A stretch of 37,123 nt of DNA from a virus (lineage: Duplodnaviria > Heunggongvirae > Uroviricota > Caudoviricetes). Shown here piece after piece: positions 26,785-34,808 of the stretch. The stretch's first letter is position 1; each line of letters opens with the position of its first letter. The translations under genes and the position numbers were made by a program. The notes below the pieces were generated by a model, which made no database searches, had not been told where the DNA came from, and was given only the letters and a program-made list of their open reading frames with translations. Where the stretch lies: positions 1-37,123 of the IMG/VR virus record IMGVR_UViG_2713896795_000003, one strand, 5' to 3'.

Positions 26785-28892
26785 GTTTACCAGAGGGGTT
26801 TGTTCTGGATGAACAGCCTGATAACTCACAACTTCCTGATGGCTTTGTGCTTGATTCCCAACCAGAACAGCAGCAATCTCCTTTGGTTTCACCAGAGGAA
26901 AATTCCAGACAGGAAAATGTTGTTAATAATGCTAACGGTTTCGACCGTTTTATGTATGGCGTTCTCAGTGGATTGATGGATGTTGGTAAAGGTGTTGGCC
27001 TGTTTCAGGATATGACACCAGAAGAGCAAGCCGCAATTCAGTCTCTACAGCAGAAGTTAGCGGCAAAACCATCAACCGCACAAGATGTTGGTGAGTTTGT
27101 TGGACAAGCAGCGCCATTTGTTAGTGGTGGTGGGATTATTTCTCAGGTTCCGAAAGGGGCGGCAAGGCTGGCTGCCGCCGCAGGGCTTGGTGCTGGAGAA
27201 GGGGCTATTGTAGCCAATGGAACAAATAGCGATGTTGCTTCCGGCGCTGCTATTGGCGCTGTGGCTGGCCCTGTAGCCGAGATTGTTGGTCCAGCGCTTG
27301 GGAAGATTGCAGGAAAAATTAAAAATAGTGCCGGAGATATTTATCGCTCATCCGTAGGGATGGGCAGTAAATCATCTAAAGCAACGTTAAAGAAAGCTGC
27401 TGGTGCAATGGATAATAAATTTATTGGTGGGCAACGAGCTATTCAAGATTTCGCCGATGAAGTTAATCCTGATTTTAACGCGATAAATGCTATTCGTGAG
27501 CTAGAACTGGAAAATTATGCCACTCCAGGCATGATCTCTAATAATCCTGCTGTCAGGGCTCTTGATAATGCAGTGGCAAGTCTCCCTGGAACAGAGATTA
27601 GTGAGGCGCATAAGCGTTTTATTACTGAATTAGGAAGAAAAGCTGATGAAATGATAACTTCATTTGGGGGAAACCTTGATAAGCAACTGGTTTCTGACAG
27701 GCTTGCAGATAATTTTGATAAAACCATTTCATCATTACAAAATCAGTCAGATAACATCTACAACAAAATTGCCGAAAAGGTACCTGTAAGAGACCGGATT
27801 GAGGCAACTAATACATTGAATTTTTTAGAGGATTTTGCTGATGACATAGGTGGAATTGATGAATTATCTCCAATAATGAAGCGGACATTGAACCGACTTG
27901 ATCCAAACACCTTGCCAACGTATGGGCGTTTAGATCTCGCTAGAAAGCAGGTTGGACAAGCTATTGGCAAAGGCTCTGGTCCATTCAAGGATGAAGAAAC
28001 AGGTGTTCTTAAAAAGTTATATGCAGCCATAACAGATGACCAACAGGCTGTCGCAGAAAAATATGGCGCAGGGGAATTATGGACGCTTGGTAAGGAGTTG
28101 GTAAAAAAACGAAAATCCATTGAAGATGATGCTGTAACCGTCTTGGGTAGAAAACTTCAGCAATCAGCAATTCCAAAAGTTGAAAGTGCTGTTGTTAATA
28201 TGGCAAAAGGAAACGGTGGCGACTTTAGGCAATTAATGAAGTCGATTCCAAAGGATATGCGGCAGGAAGTTGCGCTCACCTCAATGAATAAAGCATTTAC
28301 CAGCTATGCCAAATCACCTGGTCAGCAATTAGGAGTTGATGGATTTGTAAAATGGTATAACGGAATGTCACGCAATGGGGCCAATATGAAGGCTCTCCGT
28401 GATGCTATTGGCACAGATGCATCAAAGCGCCTTGATACGATTTATCAAGCAGCTAAGGCTATGAATAGACTCAATACTGGTAAGCAGTATGCTAGTAGTC
28501 TTGTGGATCAGCAAGTTAATAACTTTCTGAAAGAAAAGGGTAGTCTCGCAAAAATTTATGGAATAGCCTCAAAAGCTGCTGCGGCGGAAGGTATTACAAG
28601 CTTATCTGGTCTTCCTGGTGTAGGTGCAACAGGGGTGATAACGTCCGCATTGATGTCAGGGAAAACAAGCAGGATAAAGGCTGCTGATGCTCTACTGTCT
28701 TCTCCTGAGTTTAAATCAATGCTATTTCGCCTGCAAAACGCACCAGTAGACAGAGCAGAAGTGAGACGCGTAATAGAAAGGAAACTGATGCAATCTGGGG
28801 CATTTAAGAGATGGGAGAAAACCTTATCAACAGATGAAGCAAAAACCATTGCCCGCACGGGGATTATTACATGGCTCGCTAGTGACAGTTAG
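26769..28892 (+). CDS. Ejection protein (P22 gp16-like)
   Basis: 707 aa; synteny; start overlaps gp20 3-prime end. Confidence 0.7.
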   Translation: MATNVGLPEGFVLDEQPDNSQLPDGFVLDSQPEQQQSPLVSPEENSRQENVVNNANGFDRFMYGVLSGLMDVGKGVGLFQDMTPEEQAAIQSLQQKLAAKPSTAQDVGEFVGQAAPFVSGGGIISQVPKGAARLAAAAGLGAGEGAIVANGTNSDVASGAAIGAVAGPVAEIVGPALGKIAGKIKNSAGDIYRSSVGMGSKSSKATLKKAAGAMDNKFIGGQRAIQDFADEVNPDFNAINAIRELELENYATPGMISNNPAVRALDNAVASLPGTEISEAHKRFITELGRKADEMITSFGGNLDKQLVSDRLADNFDKTISSLQNQSDNIYNKIAEKVPVRDRIEATNTLNFLEDFADDIGGIDELSPIMKRTLNRLDPNTLPTYGRLDLARKQVGQAIGKGSGPFKDEETGVLKKLYAAITDDQQAVAEKYGAGELWTLGKELVKKRKSIEDDAVTVLGRKLQQSAIPKVESAVVNMAKGNGGDFRQLMKSIPKDMRQEVALTSMNKAFTSYAKSPGQQLGVDGFVKWYNGMSRNGANMKALRDAIGTDASKRLDTIYQAAKAMNRLNTGKQYASSLVDQQVNNFLKEKGSLAKIYGIASKAAAAEGITSLSGLPGVGATGVITSALMSGKTSRIKAADALLSSPEFKSMLFRLQNAPVDRAEVRRVIERKLMQSGAFKRWEKTLSTDEAKTIARTGIITWLASDS

Positions 28893-29116
28893 TCAACTTT
28901 GGTTATTTTGCCTTCTTTTTCTTGATGAACTTTGCATCCATCATCTTTTGATAGCCAAACTAAAAACTTTAAAACCTTAAACACAAGTACGGCTACTGCA
29001 ATGAAAGCACCAATCGCAATTATTGCTAGTGAAATTATTTGCATTGGTGCTTTTAATGCTGGGAAAACAGTGTAAATGAGCAAAAAAACAGCAATTATGA
29101 TGAGCCATTGCTTCAT
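28889..29116 (-). CDS. Hypothetical small membrane protein (75 aa, two predicted TM helices)
   Basis: ATG with GGGAGGA SD; hydrophobic stretches WLIIIAVFLLIYTVF and IISLAIIAIGAFIAVAVLVFKVL; 3-prime end overlaps gp16 stop convergently. Confidence 0.6.
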   Translation of the reverse strand: MKQWLIIIAVFLLIYTVFPALKAPMQIISLAIIAIGAFIAVAVLVFKVLKFLVWLSKDDGCKVHQEKEGKITKVD

Positions 29117-29144: not shown

Positions 29145-29705
29145 TCACTGCTTTATTTTGGTATCATGGGTTTCACTAGCGGCTTCCTTCGCAGTCGGCT
29201 CAGAAACCTTGAAGTAAGATTGAATCTGCGGAAGCGTTATGATTACCGCAAGCATAGCGAGAACCGCACCAACGAGCCATTGGGTCGCGGTCATGGATGT
29301 TTTAATGCCATCAATTTGACCTTTGAGCCCTGCAACTTCGCCATTGCTAGCGAATATCTGTCCCTTAATTTCATTAAGTGACTGATTCATAGCTGTAAAT
29401 TGCTTAGATTGGAATTCTCTGAAAGCTGAAATTTCAGCGCGCATGTTAGCAGATATTAACTCAATTTCTGCTTTGTTTTGACCAAGCTTCGCGTCAATCT
29501 CTTCTCTTGATGGGCTGCCCATAGCATGCTCCTCAGTGTATTGTTTTCCAAGATAAGCGATATTATTGTTTTTGGTTATATCATTCTTGGTAACTGGAGG
29601 CGAAGCATTGGACTTTTCTCCTATGCCACCTGTCGACCCCATACGACCAAGCGTTCTCTTTTTCTCCGCTGCATGATCAGCATTTACGGCAGGAAAAGTA
29701 ATCAT
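29145..29705 (-). CDS. Hypothetical membrane-anchored coiled-coil protein (186 aa; alternative 125-aa form from ATG 29522)
   Basis: Heptad-like central region and C-terminal TM WLVGAVLAMLAVIITL; ATG 29705 has poor SD whereas internal ATG 29522 has GAGGAG at -7. Confidence 0.55.
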   Translation of the reverse strand: MITFPAVNADHAAEKKRTLGRMGSTGGIGEKSNASPPVTKNDITKNNNIAYLGKQYTEEHAMGSPSREEIDAKLGQNKAEIELISANMRAEISAFREFQSKQFTAMNQSLNEIKGQIFASNGEVAGLKGQIDGIKTSMTATQWLVGAVLAMLAVIITLPQIQSYFKVSEPTAKEAASETHDTKIKQ

Positions 29706-29993: not shown

Positions 29994-30242
29994 TTATTTA
30001 TCCTTACCATACATGGTCTTTAGCGTCTCAACATCGTGTTCAAGATCTATCAATCGTGATGCTATAGTTGCAAGGTCTAGTGCTTGAATGTGTTTATTTT
30101 TTTCGGTCCACGCTTCAAGTGCCGCGACCATCTCAGCATTTAATGAACGAGAATTAGCCTCAGCAAGTTCAATAAGACGTTCCTTTATCTCTACAGGAAG
30201 CCTCAGATTCACTTGAGGGTTTTTGTACTTACGATCAGACAT
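29994..30242 (-). CDS. mnt: Mnt-like ribbon-helix-helix repressor
   Basis: 82 aa; RHH motif VNLRLPVEIKERLIELAEANSRSLNAEMVAAL resembles P22 Mnt, plus C-terminal helical tail; divergent from arc. Confidence 0.65.
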   Translation of the reverse strand: MSDRKYKNPQVNLRLPVEIKERLIELAEANSRSLNAEMVAALEAWTEKNKHIQALDLATIASRLIDLEHDVETLKTMYGKDK

Positions 30243-30263: not shown

Positions 30264-30335
30264 TTACCACAGGATATGTAGGTATCTATTGACTATCAAT
30301 GCGTACCTAAATACTATGTATGCGTACCACATACA
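30264..30335. promoter_or_regulatory. Divergent overlapping promoters (Pmnt leftward, Pant rightward) with palindromic operators
   Basis: Pant -35 TTGACT 30289-30294 / -10 TACTAT 30312-30317; Pmnt -35 TTGATA (plus 30294-30299) / -10 TATCCT (plus 30271-30276); nested palindrome TAGGTA...ATTGA-cta-TCAAT...TACCTA 30279-30309; palindrome TGTATG-N7-CATACA 30317-30335. Confidence 0.5.
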
Positions 30336-30347
30336 ACGGAGGATACA

Positions 30348-30488
30348 ATGAAGGTTAAAACACTGCGTATGCCAGAGAAGCTAGAAAAAATTCTTGAAGA
30401 AAAAGCAAAGGAAGAGTGTCGCTCATTCAGTGCAGAAGTAATTAAACGGGTGCTGGACAGCCTGAAGAGGGAGGGGGTAACAGTGTGA
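30348..30488 (+). CDS. arc: Arc-like ribbon-helix-helix repressor (46 aa)
   Basis: Hand-translated MKVKTLRMPEKLEKILEEKAKEECRSFSAEVIKRVLDSLKREGVTV resembles P22 Arc; GGAGG SD 7 nt before ATG. Confidence 0.6.
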   Translation: MKVKTLRMPEKLEKILEEKAKEECRSFSAEVIKRVLDSLKREGVTV

Positions 30489-30658
30489 TTTGCTTGGATG
30501 CAGTAGTCAAAGAGATTGTGCTTACCATTTTGAGACCAAATTTTGTTCATGGCGAATCATTTGGCGCGAACGAAAAATTGAGAAGAGAAAGAGTATTCAG
30601 TGGCAAGCGCACGTTTTCAGAAGTGATGCTTGATGCGGCAAAGAAATCAAAACAGTGA
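30485..30658 (+). CDS. Hypothetical small ORF (57 codons, GTG start)
   Basis: GTG overlaps arc stop (GTGTGA) with G-rich SD; no ATG alternative; may instead be non-coding spacer. Confidence 0.2.
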   Translation: MICLDAVVKEIVLTILRPNFVHGESFGANEKLRRERVFSGKRTFSEVMLDAAKKSKQ

Positions 30659-30721
30659 AGCCCCAACTGCGGGAACAGTCAGGGCTTCGGTATCGTAAAA
30701 CCACGCATAGGAATTAACGAC
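30645..30721 (-). ncRNA. sar: Candidate sar-like antisense RNA covering the ant translation initiation region
   Basis: Minus-strand promoter -35 TTGATA (plus 30751-30756), 17-nt spacer, -10 TATACT (plus 30728-30733); minus-strand hairpin GAAGCCC...GGGCTTC (30657-30688) followed by U-rich tract. Confidence 0.4.
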
Positions 30722-31645
30722 ATGAAAAGTATAGCAACAGCAGTATCTACTATCAATGTACCATTCCACGGCGCAGAGCTTTATGTTGTCAATCACAACG
30801 GCGAACCGTACACCCCAATGAAACCTATCGTTGAGGGAATGGGGCTAGACTGGAAATCTCAACATAAGAAGATTTCTCAACGCTTCTCGAAGGGTATGGT
30901 GGAAATCACCATACCTTCTGCCGGTGGGGTGCAAGCCATGATTTGTATGGCTTTACGAAAATTGGCAGCTTGGTTGAACAGCATCAGTCCTAACAAAGTC
31001 CGCCCTGAAATCCGCGACAAGGTAATCCAGTATCAGGAAGAGTGTGACGATGTGCTCTATGAGTACTGGACTAAAGGCCATGTGGTTAACCCGCGCAAAG
31101 CTAAAAAGGCGTTGCCGGGGAAAATCACCACTGAACAGCAGGAAGCCATTAAACAACTCGTCATGAGTCGTGGTCAGTCTCTGCCAAAAGAAAAACAGGC
31201 GAAGGCAATGATTACCATGTGGTCGTCACTGAAATCCCATTTTGGATGTTCGTACAAAGAAATCAGTGAGGAGCAGTTTACAGAAGCACTGTCACTTGCA
31301 GCTCGAGTTCCACTTGAAGGTGAGTTCATTGGCAAACAAGAGAAGAAAGCAAACGAGCTTTCTGCAAAAGAAGCAAACAGCCTTGTATGGCTATGGGATT
31401 ATGCCAACCGCTCACAGGCATTATTCCGCGAACTTTATCCGGCATTAAAACAAATTCAATCGAACTATTCCGGCAGATGTCATGACTGCGGTTATGAGTT
31501 CTCCCGTATTATCGATATAGCGAGAGACGTTTTAATCAATCACTCACGAGATGTTGATATCAATGAGCCAGACGGACCAACGAATCTTTCCGCATGGATG
31601 AGACTTAAGAATAAAGAATTACCTCCTTCAGTACATAACTACTGA
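30722..31645 (+). CDS. ant: Antirepressor Ant
   Basis: 307 aa; N-terminal region ...LYVVNHNGEPYTPMKPIVEGMGLDWKSQ...LRKLAAWLNSISPNKVRPEIRDKVIQYQEECDDVLYEYW resembles P22 Ant from memory; follows mnt/arc. Confidence 0.8.
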   Translation: MKSIATAVSTINVPFHGAELYVVNHNGEPYTPMKPIVEGMGLDWKSQHKKISQRFSKGMVEITIPSAGGVQAMICMALRKLAAWLNSISPNKVRPEIRDKVIQYQEECDDVLYEYWTKGHVVNPRKAKKALPGKITTEQQEAIKQLVMSRGQSLPKEKQAKAMITMWSSLKSHFGCSYKEISEEQFTEALSLAARVPLEGEFIGKQEKKANELSAKEANSLVWLWDYANRSQALFRELYPALKQIQSNYSGRCHDCGYEFSRIIDIARDVLINHSRDVDINEPDGPTNLSAWMRLKNKELPPSVHNY

Positions 31646-31662
31646 CAGATAACCAACGCAAC

Positions 31663-31688
31663 AACCCAGCTTCGGCTGGGTTTTTTTA
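31663..31688 (+). terminator. Intrinsic terminator after ant
   Basis: CCCAGCttcgGCTGGG followed by TTTTTTTA. Confidence 0.75.
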
Positions 31689-31698
31689 TGCCCAAAAT

Positions 31699-31786: not shown

Positions 31787-32102
31787 CACGCTGCAGCGAT
31801 TCCTTTTATCTGGAGCAGATTAAATGACAGATATTATAAATAGGAATTGTTATTTAATAATATTTGAAAATGAAAATCATGGACGATAGGAATAAAAGTA
31901 GTACTTGTTATTTTTAAGTGACGCATTAAACGCATAAAGCATATGTCTGTTGATCAAGATTCTTGCTTGTTGTAAAATAATTGTTTTGTTCATGTTGCAT
32001 AGTTTTAAAATGGATAGAAGATTATTTTTCAAAACAATTGCATCTTTGTCTGCAGTCATTCCGTTTTCTTCAATATCTAAATTTTCAAACAGGATGACTA
32101 AT

Positions 32103-34808
32103 ATGCCTGAGATAACTCCAAATGTTGTAATTGGGATGCCTTCTCAACTCTTCACTATGGCGCGTTCTTTTAAAGCCGTAGCTAATGGCAAAATTTATAT
32201 CGGTAAAATTGACACTGACCCGGTAAATCCTGAAAACCAGATTCAGGTTTATGTGGAGAACGAAGACGGCTCTCACGTTCCTGTTTCTCAACCAATCATC
32301 ATTAACGCTGCTGGATATCCGGTATATAACGGACAGATTGCCAAATTCGTAACTGTGCAAGGCCATTCTATGGCTGTTTACGATGCTTATGGCACTCAGC
32401 AGTTTTATTTTCCAAATGTATTAAAATACGATCCAGATCAGTTTGGCCCAGACTTCAAAGAGCAGTTATCTCAATCAGGAGCATACATTAATGATGATTC
32501 AAAAGGTGATGCATTAATTGGTGTAAGGCAGCCATTTACCGGGGCTGTAACTATAACTCAGCATGAAAACAATGCTCTTTTCTTAAATGTAAAACAATTT
32601 GGAGCAATTGGGGATGGGAAATATCATCCATTATCTGAGTGGTTTTCTTCAATTTCTGAAGCAAAATCCTTATATCCTTTTGTTGACTCATTATCTCAGT
32701 CAATAGACTGGGCCGCGTGGCAAGCTGCCCTTAACACAGGAAAGGTTATTTATGGTACTGATAATGCGTATGTAATAACGGATACGTTAACACCTGTTTC
32801 TGGTGGTGGGATAATTTGTCTTGGTGTGGGCAAATGGGTCTCAGGATATACTGCAACATTTGCTCCTGATATTACCACAGGAACCACATTCCTGATGTAC
32901 GGGGTAGGAAATAAAAAATATACTGTAGATTGTGTTTCTAATATGGATGTTAGTGGTGGTGTGGTTTCTAATCCATCTTCCGAAGACCCGTATACAACAA
33001 CGGCACCTGCGTCATCATATGATTTATTGGATTTTACTAACGGTGATGCTAATGGGGCTATAAGAGCCACGCTTAAACCATTCTCTGCCGCAATATTGAT
33101 GCCTGAGACAGGATGTGTTCGTCTTGAGAACTTTCGTATTGTTCCATATTTCAATGGGCTGGATGGTTATAAAGACATTGCAAATACCGGTCTTGGCGAT
33201 GAGTGGGATGTAGGTATTTGGTCACGTGCTTCTTTTGGCAATGAATACCGCAATTTGCAGGTGGTTGGATACTGGCGCAAGACGGCACTTTTAAAAACGA
33301 ACATTCCTGTATCTGGCACGCTGGCCGCTCAGGGCGAGGATGAAAACTATTATCACTGTAGATTCCAAGGATTCAAGGGTGTTTCGATCCGCGCCCATGA
33401 TGTATTCCGAATTACAGCGGTAACGTCCAGCACTATCGAAATCCCATGGTCAGCAAGCCACACCTTCGAAACGTCCGGGGTTTTAAGATCTGGAGGCAGG
33501 AATTTCACTTATTCAGGATTATCCGTATCCGGTGATAAGTTAGTATTTACTGGAGTGTCTAACGCTTCTGAGGCAACAGTAGGTTCTACTATACGGCGAA
33601 ATGACATAGATAACTTTGGTATGGCGGGAACGCAATTTTTCGATTGCTACATTACCAGCCTGTATCACCACACACATCTGCTTGCCACATCGCAATACCT
33701 GTCTCAACCATTCAGCCGACCATCAGAGTGTATGGAGGTTTCAGGGGAACCAGTTCGCGGTGTACAGGTACATGCAGGAACCATTCAGGGATGGGATGAT
33801 GTTCTTATTCATCTACATGACTGTGGAAATATGAACTTTTACAGTACATATTTCGAAAGCCAGCAAGCATATGTAACTATAAATGGTGGTAATGCTATTG
33901 GTTATGGAGCACGTATGATAGCTTCCCGGCAATCAACAAGCTCATTACCATATGCAGCAGGGAATACTCGAGTGCTTAGAATGGTCGGGTGCTCTGAAGG
34001 CAATGGCGTTGACTGGGGGCATGTATTTAACAACTATACAGGAGGAAGATATAATTCTGGAGACGGTGTATTTAACCCCCGCGATGCATTTATAGACCAT
34101 AAATCTCTTCCTGAGCAGTCAGGAGGTGAGTCAAGACTCGTATCACAAAAAGGAAATGCCAGAGTAGTATGTGGTGTTGGTAAAACTGTACTGCTTGGAC
34201 CAACGTCAGGAGATTGTAATTTACAGAGTAATACTGGAAGTTTAAATATTAGAAGTGGGATAAGAGTAAGAATCGGTCACGCTGATGGAACAGACTGGTG
34301 GTTGGCAGATGCTAATAAAATAGCTCCTGTTGATGATAATGTTAAAGCTATTGGACAGCCATCAAACAGATGCTCTGTTATTTATGCAGGAACCGGGTCA
34401 ATCAATACATCAGATGAAACTCTTAAAACAAGATATGATATTCTTAATGCAGAGCGTGATGCCGCTATTGAAATAAAGTCAGTCATCTATAAATTTAAAT
34501 TTAATGACTCAATTAATCACAAAGGAATTGAGTCGTCCAGGTATCATTTTGGCGTTGGCGCTCAAACCGTAGGGGATATTCTTAGAAAGCATGGTTTAAA
34601 CCCTGAGCAATATGCTTTTTGGTGTTACGATGAATGGCCTGACGTATGGGATGAAGAGGTGATAACTGAAGAGAGCACAGATCCTGATACAGGTGAGAAA
34701 ATTTATTCTCAATATAAAACAGGAGATATGATTCTTGTAAAAAAAGCAGGAGGACGCTACGGAATTCGTTATGACGAATTGGCTATGTTTATATTAATGG
34801 CAATGTAG
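32103..34808 (+). CDS. Tailspike: P22-type head-binding domain + beta-helix receptor-binding/depolymerase domain + C-terminal S74-type chaperone domain
   Basis: N-terminus [46 protein letters not shown]... resembles P22 tailspike head-binding domain; central QFGAIGDG pectate-lyase-like motif; C-terminal SDETLK motif; AGGA 8 nt before ATG 32103 (alternative ATG 32094). Confidence 0.85.

Follow-up and report, generated by a model that had tools for sequence, protein, structure and literature searches.

A 37,123-nucleotide (nt) stretch of viral DNA (IMG/VR record IMGVR_UViG_2713896795_000003, positions 1 to 37,123; hereafter the window) carries an additional 57-codon open reading frame (ORF), ORF57, between the repressor gene arc and the antirepressor gene ant of a P22-type secondary immunity region, immI. 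We consider it reasonably probable that this is a P22-type immI circuit holding a mobile one-gene ORF57 cassette in a polymorphic slot, the product of which would, as a best guess, be an accessory protein acting at the time of infection. The window belongs to a P22-like phage or prophage of E. coli (Lederbergvirus), with CUS-3, E212 and Kapi1 as its nearest relatives. Its immunity region is of the ordinary P22 type and reads mnt (leftward), Pmnt/Pant, arc (rightward), cassette, sar (antisense) and ant. The elements on which the argument rests are the following.

29994..30242, minus strand: mnt-type repressor gene, 82 amino acids (aa), ribbon-helix-helix (Pfam Arc PF03869, E=3.1e-10)
30348..30488, plus strand: arc repressor gene, 46 aa (Pfam Arc PF03869, 33.6 bits against a cut-off of 20.4, E=3.4e-8)
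30470..30477, plus strand: Shine-Dalgarno-like GGAGGGGG, read from the sequence, 7 nt upstream of the ORF57 GTG
30485..30658, plus strand: ORF57, 57-codon cassette gene with a GTG start (ORF list; phrog_17642; codon usage; slot census)
30654..30720, minus strand: sar antisense RNA gene (Rfam RF00262, 76.6 bits against a gathering threshold of 43, E=1.2e-15, model positions 1-68 of 68)
30688..30647, minus strand: sar intrinsic terminator, a 14-bp stem (30688..30657) followed by ACUGUUUUGAUU (terminator scan)
30756..30728, minus strand: Psar promoter TTGATA-17-TATACT with an extended -10 TG (promoter scan, 10/12 matches)
30722..31645, plus strand: ant antirepressor gene, 307 aa (Pfam P22_AR_N, E=5.7e-45; P22_AR_C, E=5.2e-27)

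The identity of the region is clear from its gene content. Genes for mnt, arc and an ant with both P22_AR_N and P22_AR_C domains lie between homologues of gene 16 and the tailspike gene (Pfam; synteny with CUS-3, P22 and epsilon34), and in a comparison of loci the position and orientation of mnt matched those in P22, epsilon34 and CUS-3. The window Arc is 100% identical to an 'Arc family DNA-binding protein' annotated by the Prokaryotic Genome Annotation Pipeline (PGAP) in a prophage of E. coli O104:H4, and the window ant has ~95% DNA identity to that of CUS-3. A first-pass annotation, made from the letters alone, had described an arc-ant gap of ~230 base pairs (bp) containing a 57-codon GTG-initiated ORF that overlaps the arc stop, together with an opposite-strand promoter within the first ant codons aimed at a hairpin and U-tract. 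All of these elements were recovered. The gap measures 233 bp, compared with 68 bp in the retrieved P22 locus (arc 736-897, ant from 966), the GTG of ORF57 shares 4 nt with the arc stop (GTGA), and both the promoter and the stem with its U-tract stand where they had been placed.

The same annotation had called the opposite-strand element a candidate antisense RNA, likening it to the sar-type control of ant in P22. The likeness held and the antisense element is real, but it is not a new candidate: by its Rfam match it is a bona fide homologue of sar, a known and curated family. The covariance match is full-length and above the gathering threshold, and sar matches of 62-98 bits were also obtained in P22, CUS-3, phiv205-1, a metagenomic contig and a Klebsiella prophage. 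The gene lies downstream of arc and antisense to the ant leader and ribosome-binding site; it covers the ant Shine-Dalgarno sequence (AGGA, 30709-30712) and reaches the base preceding the ant ATG at 30722. The predicted fold of the RNA shows the pair of stem-loops characteristic of sar (-29.8 kcal/mol, z=-5.6). The Rfam match starts 7-8 nt downstream of the Psar -10 element and ends at the terminator, where the tract following the hairpin reads ACTGTTTTGA on the minus strand in the terminator scan. A sigma-70 promoter of its own in the first ant codons and an intrinsic terminator are represented by sequence matches. Psar lies 7-35 nt inside ant (ant codons 3-12), and both Psar and sar occupy the positions annotated for them in epsilon34, where Psar was assigned by similarity to P22; promoter and terminator also stand as they do in P22. 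Three promoter-like matches were found against 2.0 expected by chance, and the Psar match alone is not significant. That the antisense element and the ORF are well beyond chance follows from the Rfam match (E=1.2e-15) and the comparative data.

We aligned the window with P22, CUS-3, the O104:H4 prophage and three more E. coli prophages. All have in common the 3' end of arc and the 32-nt sar hairpin, the latter identical save at two variable loop positions, and the content between these two landmarks differs. Set against P22 immI, the spacer is not ordinary conserved non-coding sequence but a mobile insert filled by an ORF. The first-pass annotation had stated, correctly, that such an ORF is not part of the P22 arrangement: the P22 arc stop lies 4-6 nt from the sar hairpin, with no ORF between. 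The insert adds 168 bp and spans exactly the interval from the arc stop to the hairpin foot. The slot is bounded on the left by the conserved arc 3' end (codons ...SLKREGxxV) and on the right by the sar hairpin. The two genes meet closely at the right boundary, as the last ORF57 codons encode the sar terminator U-tract and the ORF57 TGA stop forms the hairpin foot.

The cassette is mobile. Full-length ORF57 alleles are 86-96% identical across loci in which arc is 39-55% and ant 21-59% identical, the exception being the window and the O104:H4 prophage, which share an identical arc; identity to an allele with an internal duplication, from contig ERZ1643255, is 66-77%. ORF57 occurs with at least three arc alleles and at least four ant alleles, one of which encodes a KilA-N-type Ant only 21% identical to the window Ant. 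Between the window and the O104:H4 prophage, there is no difference up to the end of arc, little difference within ORF57 and again none across the hairpin. Past the hairpin, the window has CUS-3 sequence for the remainder of sar and for ant, with the switch located inside or just after the hairpin. Because the window passes from O104:H4-like to CUS-3-like sequence at this point, the arc 3' end and the hairpin behave as recombination linkers.

The contents of the slot were compiled for 119 sar-bearing loci, a sample made up of the matches listed from a hairpin scan of IMG/VR, the window and other retrieved loci; 113 of these have a recognisable arc and six do not. A slot was counted as empty when 0-9 nt separated the arc stop from the AGCCCC at the hairpin foot. 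Among the 119 loci listed, the contents were distributed as follows.

Empty slot: 57 loci
ORF57: 13 loci
ORF67 (67-aa Cys-rich, as in CUS-3): 17 loci, plus 3 broken copies
ORF60: 1 locus, plus 1 truncated copy
ORF63: 1 locus
ORF73: 6 loci
ORF74: 2 loci
ORF80: 3 loci
ORF89 (transmembrane segment and coiled coil, as judged by eye from the sequence): 5 loci
35-nt scar allele: 4 loci

The slot is thus polymorphic, and its geometry is fixed. In all eight cargo families, the start codon overlaps the arc stop, by 4 nt in general (ATGA; GTGA in ORF57) and by 8 nt in Klebsiella, and the gene ends in a TGA that abuts the AGCCCC of the hairpin foot. When the inserts were shuffled with dinucleotide composition preserved, the chance of an open frame was 0.054 for ORF57 and 0.001-0.009 for the other families, giving a product over the eight of ~2e-18. 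Judged from these frames, non-coding inserts would not show such a fixed arrangement. Furthermore, ORF60 matches zf-C4_ClpX (PF06689; 43 bits against a cut-off of 27), and this recognised domain indicates that genuine proteins can be encoded in the slot. Similarity links ORF63 to ORF67 (E=3.5e-12) and, weakly, to ORF60; ORF74 repeats the CxxC...CxxC layout of the ClpX-type cargos, and ORF73 and ORF80 gave FlbD matches below threshold. ORF57 resembles none of the other cargo families, and with a single Cys and no Pfam match it does not belong to the ClpX C4 zinc-finger class (PF06689).

We also observed that several slot cargos are stand-alone ClpX-type zinc-ribbon proteins (ORF60 by Pfam; ORF63, ORF67 and ORF74 by relation or layout). 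Such mimics of the ClpX N-domain, if produced from Pant, could interfere with substrate or adaptor recognition by ClpXP.

The end of translation relative to the hairpin is equally regular. In each of the 113 listed loci with arc, the last upstream ORF, whether arc, cargo or scar mini-ORF, stops 0-9 nt from the hairpin, and in none is there an untranslated spacer before it. In P22, the arc TAA is followed by an in-frame AGT TGA at the hairpin foot. This regularity may be a constraint (ribosomes reaching the target hairpin in the ant mRNA) or may simply result from recombination at fixed linkers. The pattern at the level of the slot seems to have gone unreported: in the literature we found neither a described gene or cassette between arc and ant nor a function for the phiv205-1 ORF.

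Several features of ORF57 are those of a gene. The Shine-Dalgarno-like GGAGGGGG sits within the arc codons for the conserved C-terminal ...KREG..., and the other alleles have the same G-rich motif ahead of each of their cargo ORFs. When codon usage was modelled on the long ORFs of the window itself, the log-odds reached +9.7 bits in the ORF57 frame and ≤0.1 in the other five frames. For reference, arc scored +12.2, chunks of real genes averaged 16.2 (standard deviation 8.2) and off-frame chunks were strongly negative. The chance that its frame stays open, 5.4% of dinucleotide shuffles, is borderline when taken alone. Together, the slot geometry and codon usage argue that ORF57 is a translated gene; its predicted product is a basic protein of 57 aa (isoelectric point, pI, 9.7) with one Cys.

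Other interpretations of the insert were examined and rejected. A structured RNA is not indicated, as the fold of the insert mRNA is not unusual (z=-0.84). A fusion of Arc with ORF57 by frameshifting or read-through was discarded, since there is no slippery sequence and the arc frame meets a TAG five codons past its TGA. Four alternative ORFs in and around the gap had codon-usage scores of ≤0.1, down to -33, and were not conserved as ORFs.

30490-30633, plus strand: alternative ORF of 47 aa, rejected on codon usage and conservation
30547-30666, minus strand: alternative ORF of 39 aa, rejected on the same grounds
30597-30704, minus strand: alternative ORF of 35 aa, likewise rejected
30314-30550, minus strand: alternative ORF of 78 aa, likewise rejected

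ORF57 is already catalogued as a hypothetical protein, is not unique to the window and is functionally uncharacterised. It matches phrog_17642 (unknown function) over its full length (E=6e-40, residues 2-57 against profile positions 2-57 of 57). The homologue in Escherichia phage phiv205-1 (QGF19908.1, annotated hypothetical; 93% identity) overlaps the Arc gene of that phage. ORF57 was present in 93 of 5426 complete E. coli genomes at 95-99% DNA identity, and its carriers include the O104:H4 2011 outbreak strain and avian pathogenic E. coli (APEC) O1/sequence type 95 (ST95) strains, in the latter of which it is called hypothetical. A P22-like prophage of Klebsiella aerogenes has ORF57 at 86% amino-acid identity in the same slot, beside a KilA-N-type Ant. 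The 20 ORF57 loci in IMG/VR are all 89-91% identical and add no further diversity, and no relative was found among species-representative genomes. PADLOC defence models gave no match at E<=0.1 for ORF57 and six other cargo families (all except ORF63). Additional profile hidden Markov model (HMM) matches, to LRPSFVRGRSF and FG-GAP-like repeat proteins, were rejected as weak scores summed over 5-7 repeats.

Variant forms of ORF57 were also noted. The metagenome contig ERZ1643255 encodes a 72-aa variant (locus positions 1542-1760) with a 45-nt internal insertion or duplication (…RRERVFMALKGCIKWRRERVFSGK…). In 77-aa variants, a frameshift close to the C-terminus carries the reading frame on through the sar hairpin; one such variant (QDX12_07450) belongs to a complete E. 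coli genome. These alleles may reflect real decay or sequencing errors in A-runs.

The promoters from which ORF57 would be expressed were sought by consensus scans, with functions assigned by analogy.

30289-30317, plus strand: Pant-like promoter TTGACT-17-TACTAT
30299..30271, minus strand: Pmnt-like promoter TTGATA-17-TATCCT

The two sites are divergent and overlapping (30271..30317), and their place matches that of Pmnt/Pant/arcO annotated in epsilon34. A repeat search found an imperfect inverted repeat of 18 nt (30275-30292 / 30296-30313, 78% complementary) centred on the Pant -35 element, and a direct repeat of 21 nt (30282-30302 / 30303-30323) lies in the Pant/Pmnt overlap. By analogy with P22, the repeats at 30275-30323 are candidate Mnt and Arc operators, although their sequence is unlike that of the P22 operators. 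The same consensus scans detected no plus-strand promoter-like site from Pant to ORF57 and no plus-strand terminator after ORF57. A moron, in the usage of Hendrix et al. that PMC2629481 follows, is an independently expressed inserted gene. ORF57 shows the presence/absence pattern of a moron among syntenic relatives and lacks a promoter and terminator of its own. For this reason, and because its start overlaps the arc stop, it is better called an in-operon cassette than a classical moron.

Transcription of arc and ant from Pant and from the late operon, and the role of sar, have been described (PMC12111858, PMC2629481, PMC13397905), and sar reads and transcripts were detected in recent small-RNA sequencing of P22 (PMC13397905). 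If sar acts as its P22 homologue does, the RNA, transcribed from Psar within ant, would pair with the ant leader at its ribosome-binding region and block Ant translation, including on late-operon read-through transcripts. As the whole insert lies upstream of the sar terminator hairpin, it would not disturb this circuit, and the control of ant by sar should be untouched. ORF57 has no promoter of its own; Pant would drive it together with arc and ant, and late-operon read-through would transcribe it as well. Its translation would be coupled to that of arc by termination and reinitiation at the GTGA overlap, downstream of a strong Shine-Dalgarno sequence. In P22, Pant gives an early burst after infection, is shut off by Arc and is kept off by Mnt in the lysogen. 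If the window behaves likewise, ORF57, being co-transcribed from Pant and coupled to arc, would be made in the early burst before Arc repression and not in the Mnt-repressed lysogen. Its product would be a basic 57-aa accessory protein that the immI circuit can dispense with; our best guess, which is speculative, is a factor that acts at infection against the host or competing phages, like the neighbouring Ant.

Several observations weigh against this view of ORF57. A 135-bp in-frame deletion within ORF57 occurs in 33 of 5426 complete E. coli genomes and accounts for the seemingly empty slot of some prophages (ISHS7, EC28). The deletion lies between the near-repeats GCTTGGATGC and GCTTGATGC and leaves a 12-codon mini-ORF (MIRLDAAKKSKQ; positions 700-738 of the ISHS7 locus) whose start still overlaps the arc stop and whose end is still at the hairpin foot. 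Because 33 genomes carry this allele, ORF57 is easily lost and is not needed for prophage carriage; nor is it needed for the immI circuit, as P22-type slots are empty. The ratio of non-synonymous to synonymous substitution rates (dN/dS) was 0.54 between the window and Klebsiella (4 synonymous and 8 non-synonymous substitutions) and 1.1 between the window and phiv205-1 (1 synonymous and 4 non-synonymous), values that rest on only 5-12 substitutions per pair, too few to separate coding from neutral evolution. ORF57 is the sole cargo family of the eight with a GTG start, the others using ATG, and PGAP leaves it unannotated in O104:H4. Its family is tiny and of low diversity: a search of 5.8 billion proteins gave 10 clusters, of which several carry frameshifts or truncations. 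A profile-HMM search of 1.84 billion representatives returned no true remote homologue, and sequence searches of Pfam, NCBIfam, PADLOC and the PDB gave no match. An AlphaFold2 model built on a 5-sequence alignment shows three helices but is unreliable (predicted local distance difference test score, pLDDT, 56.7; predicted template modelling score, pTM, 0.26). Finally, we infer the transcription and translation of ORF57 by analogy with P22.

These points bear differently on the alternatives. One is that what is selected is translation up to the foot of the sar/ant-mRNA hairpin, for instance because this spares ant from Rho polarity or leaves the sar target open to pairing, and that ORF57 is a near-neutral filler. 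The stop positions in all 113 listed arc-bearing loci fit this idea, including that of the in-frame 12-codon scar mini-ORF, as do dN/dS values not distinguishable from neutral and the sar terminator U-tract, which the last ORF57 codons supply and the scar allele retains. However, an empty slot such as that of P22 already satisfies the constraint, so that the carriage of 170-270 nt and their spread among backgrounds are left unexplained. A short ORF would suffice where eight long open frames are found, at a chance of ~2e-18. The bona fide protein domain of ORF60 and the gene-like codon usage of ORF57 in one frame only likewise oppose the idea, and we regard it as unlikely. An ORF that is there by chance or is decaying, in hitch-hiking DNA left by recombination between the arc 3' end and the sar hairpin and not purposefully expressed, seems to us rather improbable. 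Such an origin would be in keeping with the 5.4% of shuffles that stay open, the GTG start, the few and nearly identical homologues, the frameshift variants and common deletion allele, the omission by PGAP in O104:H4 and the lack of a confident fold. Against it, ORF57 has exactly the start and stop geometry of seven other cargo families and a frame-specific codon bias, and intact copies are carried by 93 E. coli genomes from unrelated lineages (O104:H4, ST95/APEC) and by Klebsiella aerogenes, in differing arc and ant backgrounds.

Least of all do we expect ORF57 to be a dedicated extra regulator of immI, for example a modulator of the action of Arc, Ant or sar. Its place between arc and ant, its presumed co-expression with them and the small, basic nature of its product (pI 9.7) would suit such a role. 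A specific partner, however, should co-vary with arc or ant, and ORF57 does not: it accompanies at least three arc and at least four ant alleles, the 21%-identical KilA-N-type Ant among them. Moreover, unrelated proteins take its place at other loci, P22-type loci do without it, and 33 genomes carry a deletion of it. A mobile cassette gene in a P22-type immI slot, with an infection-time product as the best guess, thus remains the explanation that we favour. A wider version of it can be offered only tentatively, and we would sooner doubt it than rely on it: the arc/sar-terminator junction might be an unrecognised hot spot at which P22-like phages swap small effector genes, with ORF57, ClpX zinc-finger mimics and a membrane protein among the five or more unrelated classes present. 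The genes would ride the Arc-limited Pant burst and act at infection against host proteolysis, host defence or competing prophages, and ORF57 would be a new orphan effector family.

The regulatory part of the region (sar, arc, mnt and ant) is textbook and offers nothing new; this is a known system, P22 immI with sar, in a variant with an uncharacterised one-gene cassette, and the slot pattern is moderately interesting. The slot provides a precise, searchable address, from the arc stop to the sar hairpin, for small-gene exchange in P22-like phages of E. coli, Klebsiella and other hosts. Judging from their position, and by analogy with P22, one short burst of expression at infection is to be expected of slot genes. 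Slots of this kind tend to harbour counter-defence and host-takeover genes, and the stand-alone ClpX zinc-finger-like cargos suggest a possible link to ClpXP. The analysis also corrects the record, in that CUS-3 encodes arc, and it flags an ORF missed by PGAP in the prophage of the O104:H4 outbreak strain. If ORF57 were only filler, the polymorphism would be ordinary mosaicism.

Some neighbouring features complete the picture of the window.

31950-34808, downstream of ant: tailspike ORF (ORF list)
29145-29705, minus strand, upstream of mnt: ORF of 186 aa with a coiled coil and a C-terminal hydrophobic segment, as judged from the sequence
28889-29116, minus strand, upstream of mnt: ORF of 75 aa, very hydrophobic, as judged from the sequence
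31660-31698, minus strand, between ant and the tailspike gene: hairpin with A- and U-run flanks (AAAAAAACCCAGCCGAAGCUGGGUUGUU)

The epsilon34 genome paper describes the interval from gene 16 to gene 9 as a variable 'ant moron' (PMC2629481), and the 186-aa and 75-aa ORFs are probably further accessory genes of this interval. The hairpin gave a partial match to the small RNA STnc370 below threshold (25.9 bits against 54) and is probably a bidirectional intrinsic terminator.

With respect to known systems, anti-CRISPR/aca operons have a strong early-burst promoter that is shut off by a co-encoded small repressor, and small variable cargo genes that swap. In the window, by contrast, Arc is upstream of the cargo and the known payload of the operon is an antirepressor; the likeness is one of working logic only. 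The phiv205-1 gene belongs to the same protein family (phrog_17642, 93% identity) and has the same slot and the same arc overlap, but it is accompanied by other alleles of arc (55% identity) and ant (58% identity) and has no function assigned.

The reference system is mnt-arc-sar-ant of P22 immI (Sauer et al. 1983; Liao, Wu, Susskind and McClure 1987, as cited in PMC2629481). The window resembles it in gene order and orientation, divergent Pant- and Pmnt-like promoters, ribbon-helix-helix Mnt and Arc, a P22-type Ant and a Psar in the first ant codons, and its 32-nt hairpin departs from the P22 one at a single loop base. Because it mirrors another ant leader, the 5' stem-loop of sar is unlike that of P22. 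P22 differs further in its 68 bp between arc and ant without an ORF, compared with 233 bp containing ORF57, and in its Arc of 53 aa ending in ...KKEGRIGA, compared with 46 aa ending in ...KREGVTV.

CUS-3 (CP000711) is the closest sequenced phage for mnt, arc, the 5' half of sar and ant (~95% DNA identity). It has a cassette ORF in the same slot with identical geometry, but the cargo is an unrelated 67-aa Cys-rich zinc-ribbon-like ORF (phrog_7150). Its genes for the 46-aa Arc (locus positions 1853-1993) and the 67-aa ORF (1989-2193) are unannotated and lie inside a 'bsq2 boundary sequence' (CP000711). The epsilon34 genome paper states that CUS-3 apparently lacks arc (PMC2629481); as CUS-3 encodes the same 46-aa Arc together with ORF67, this absence seems to be an annotation gap, and CUS-3 and the window share one arrangement with different cargo.

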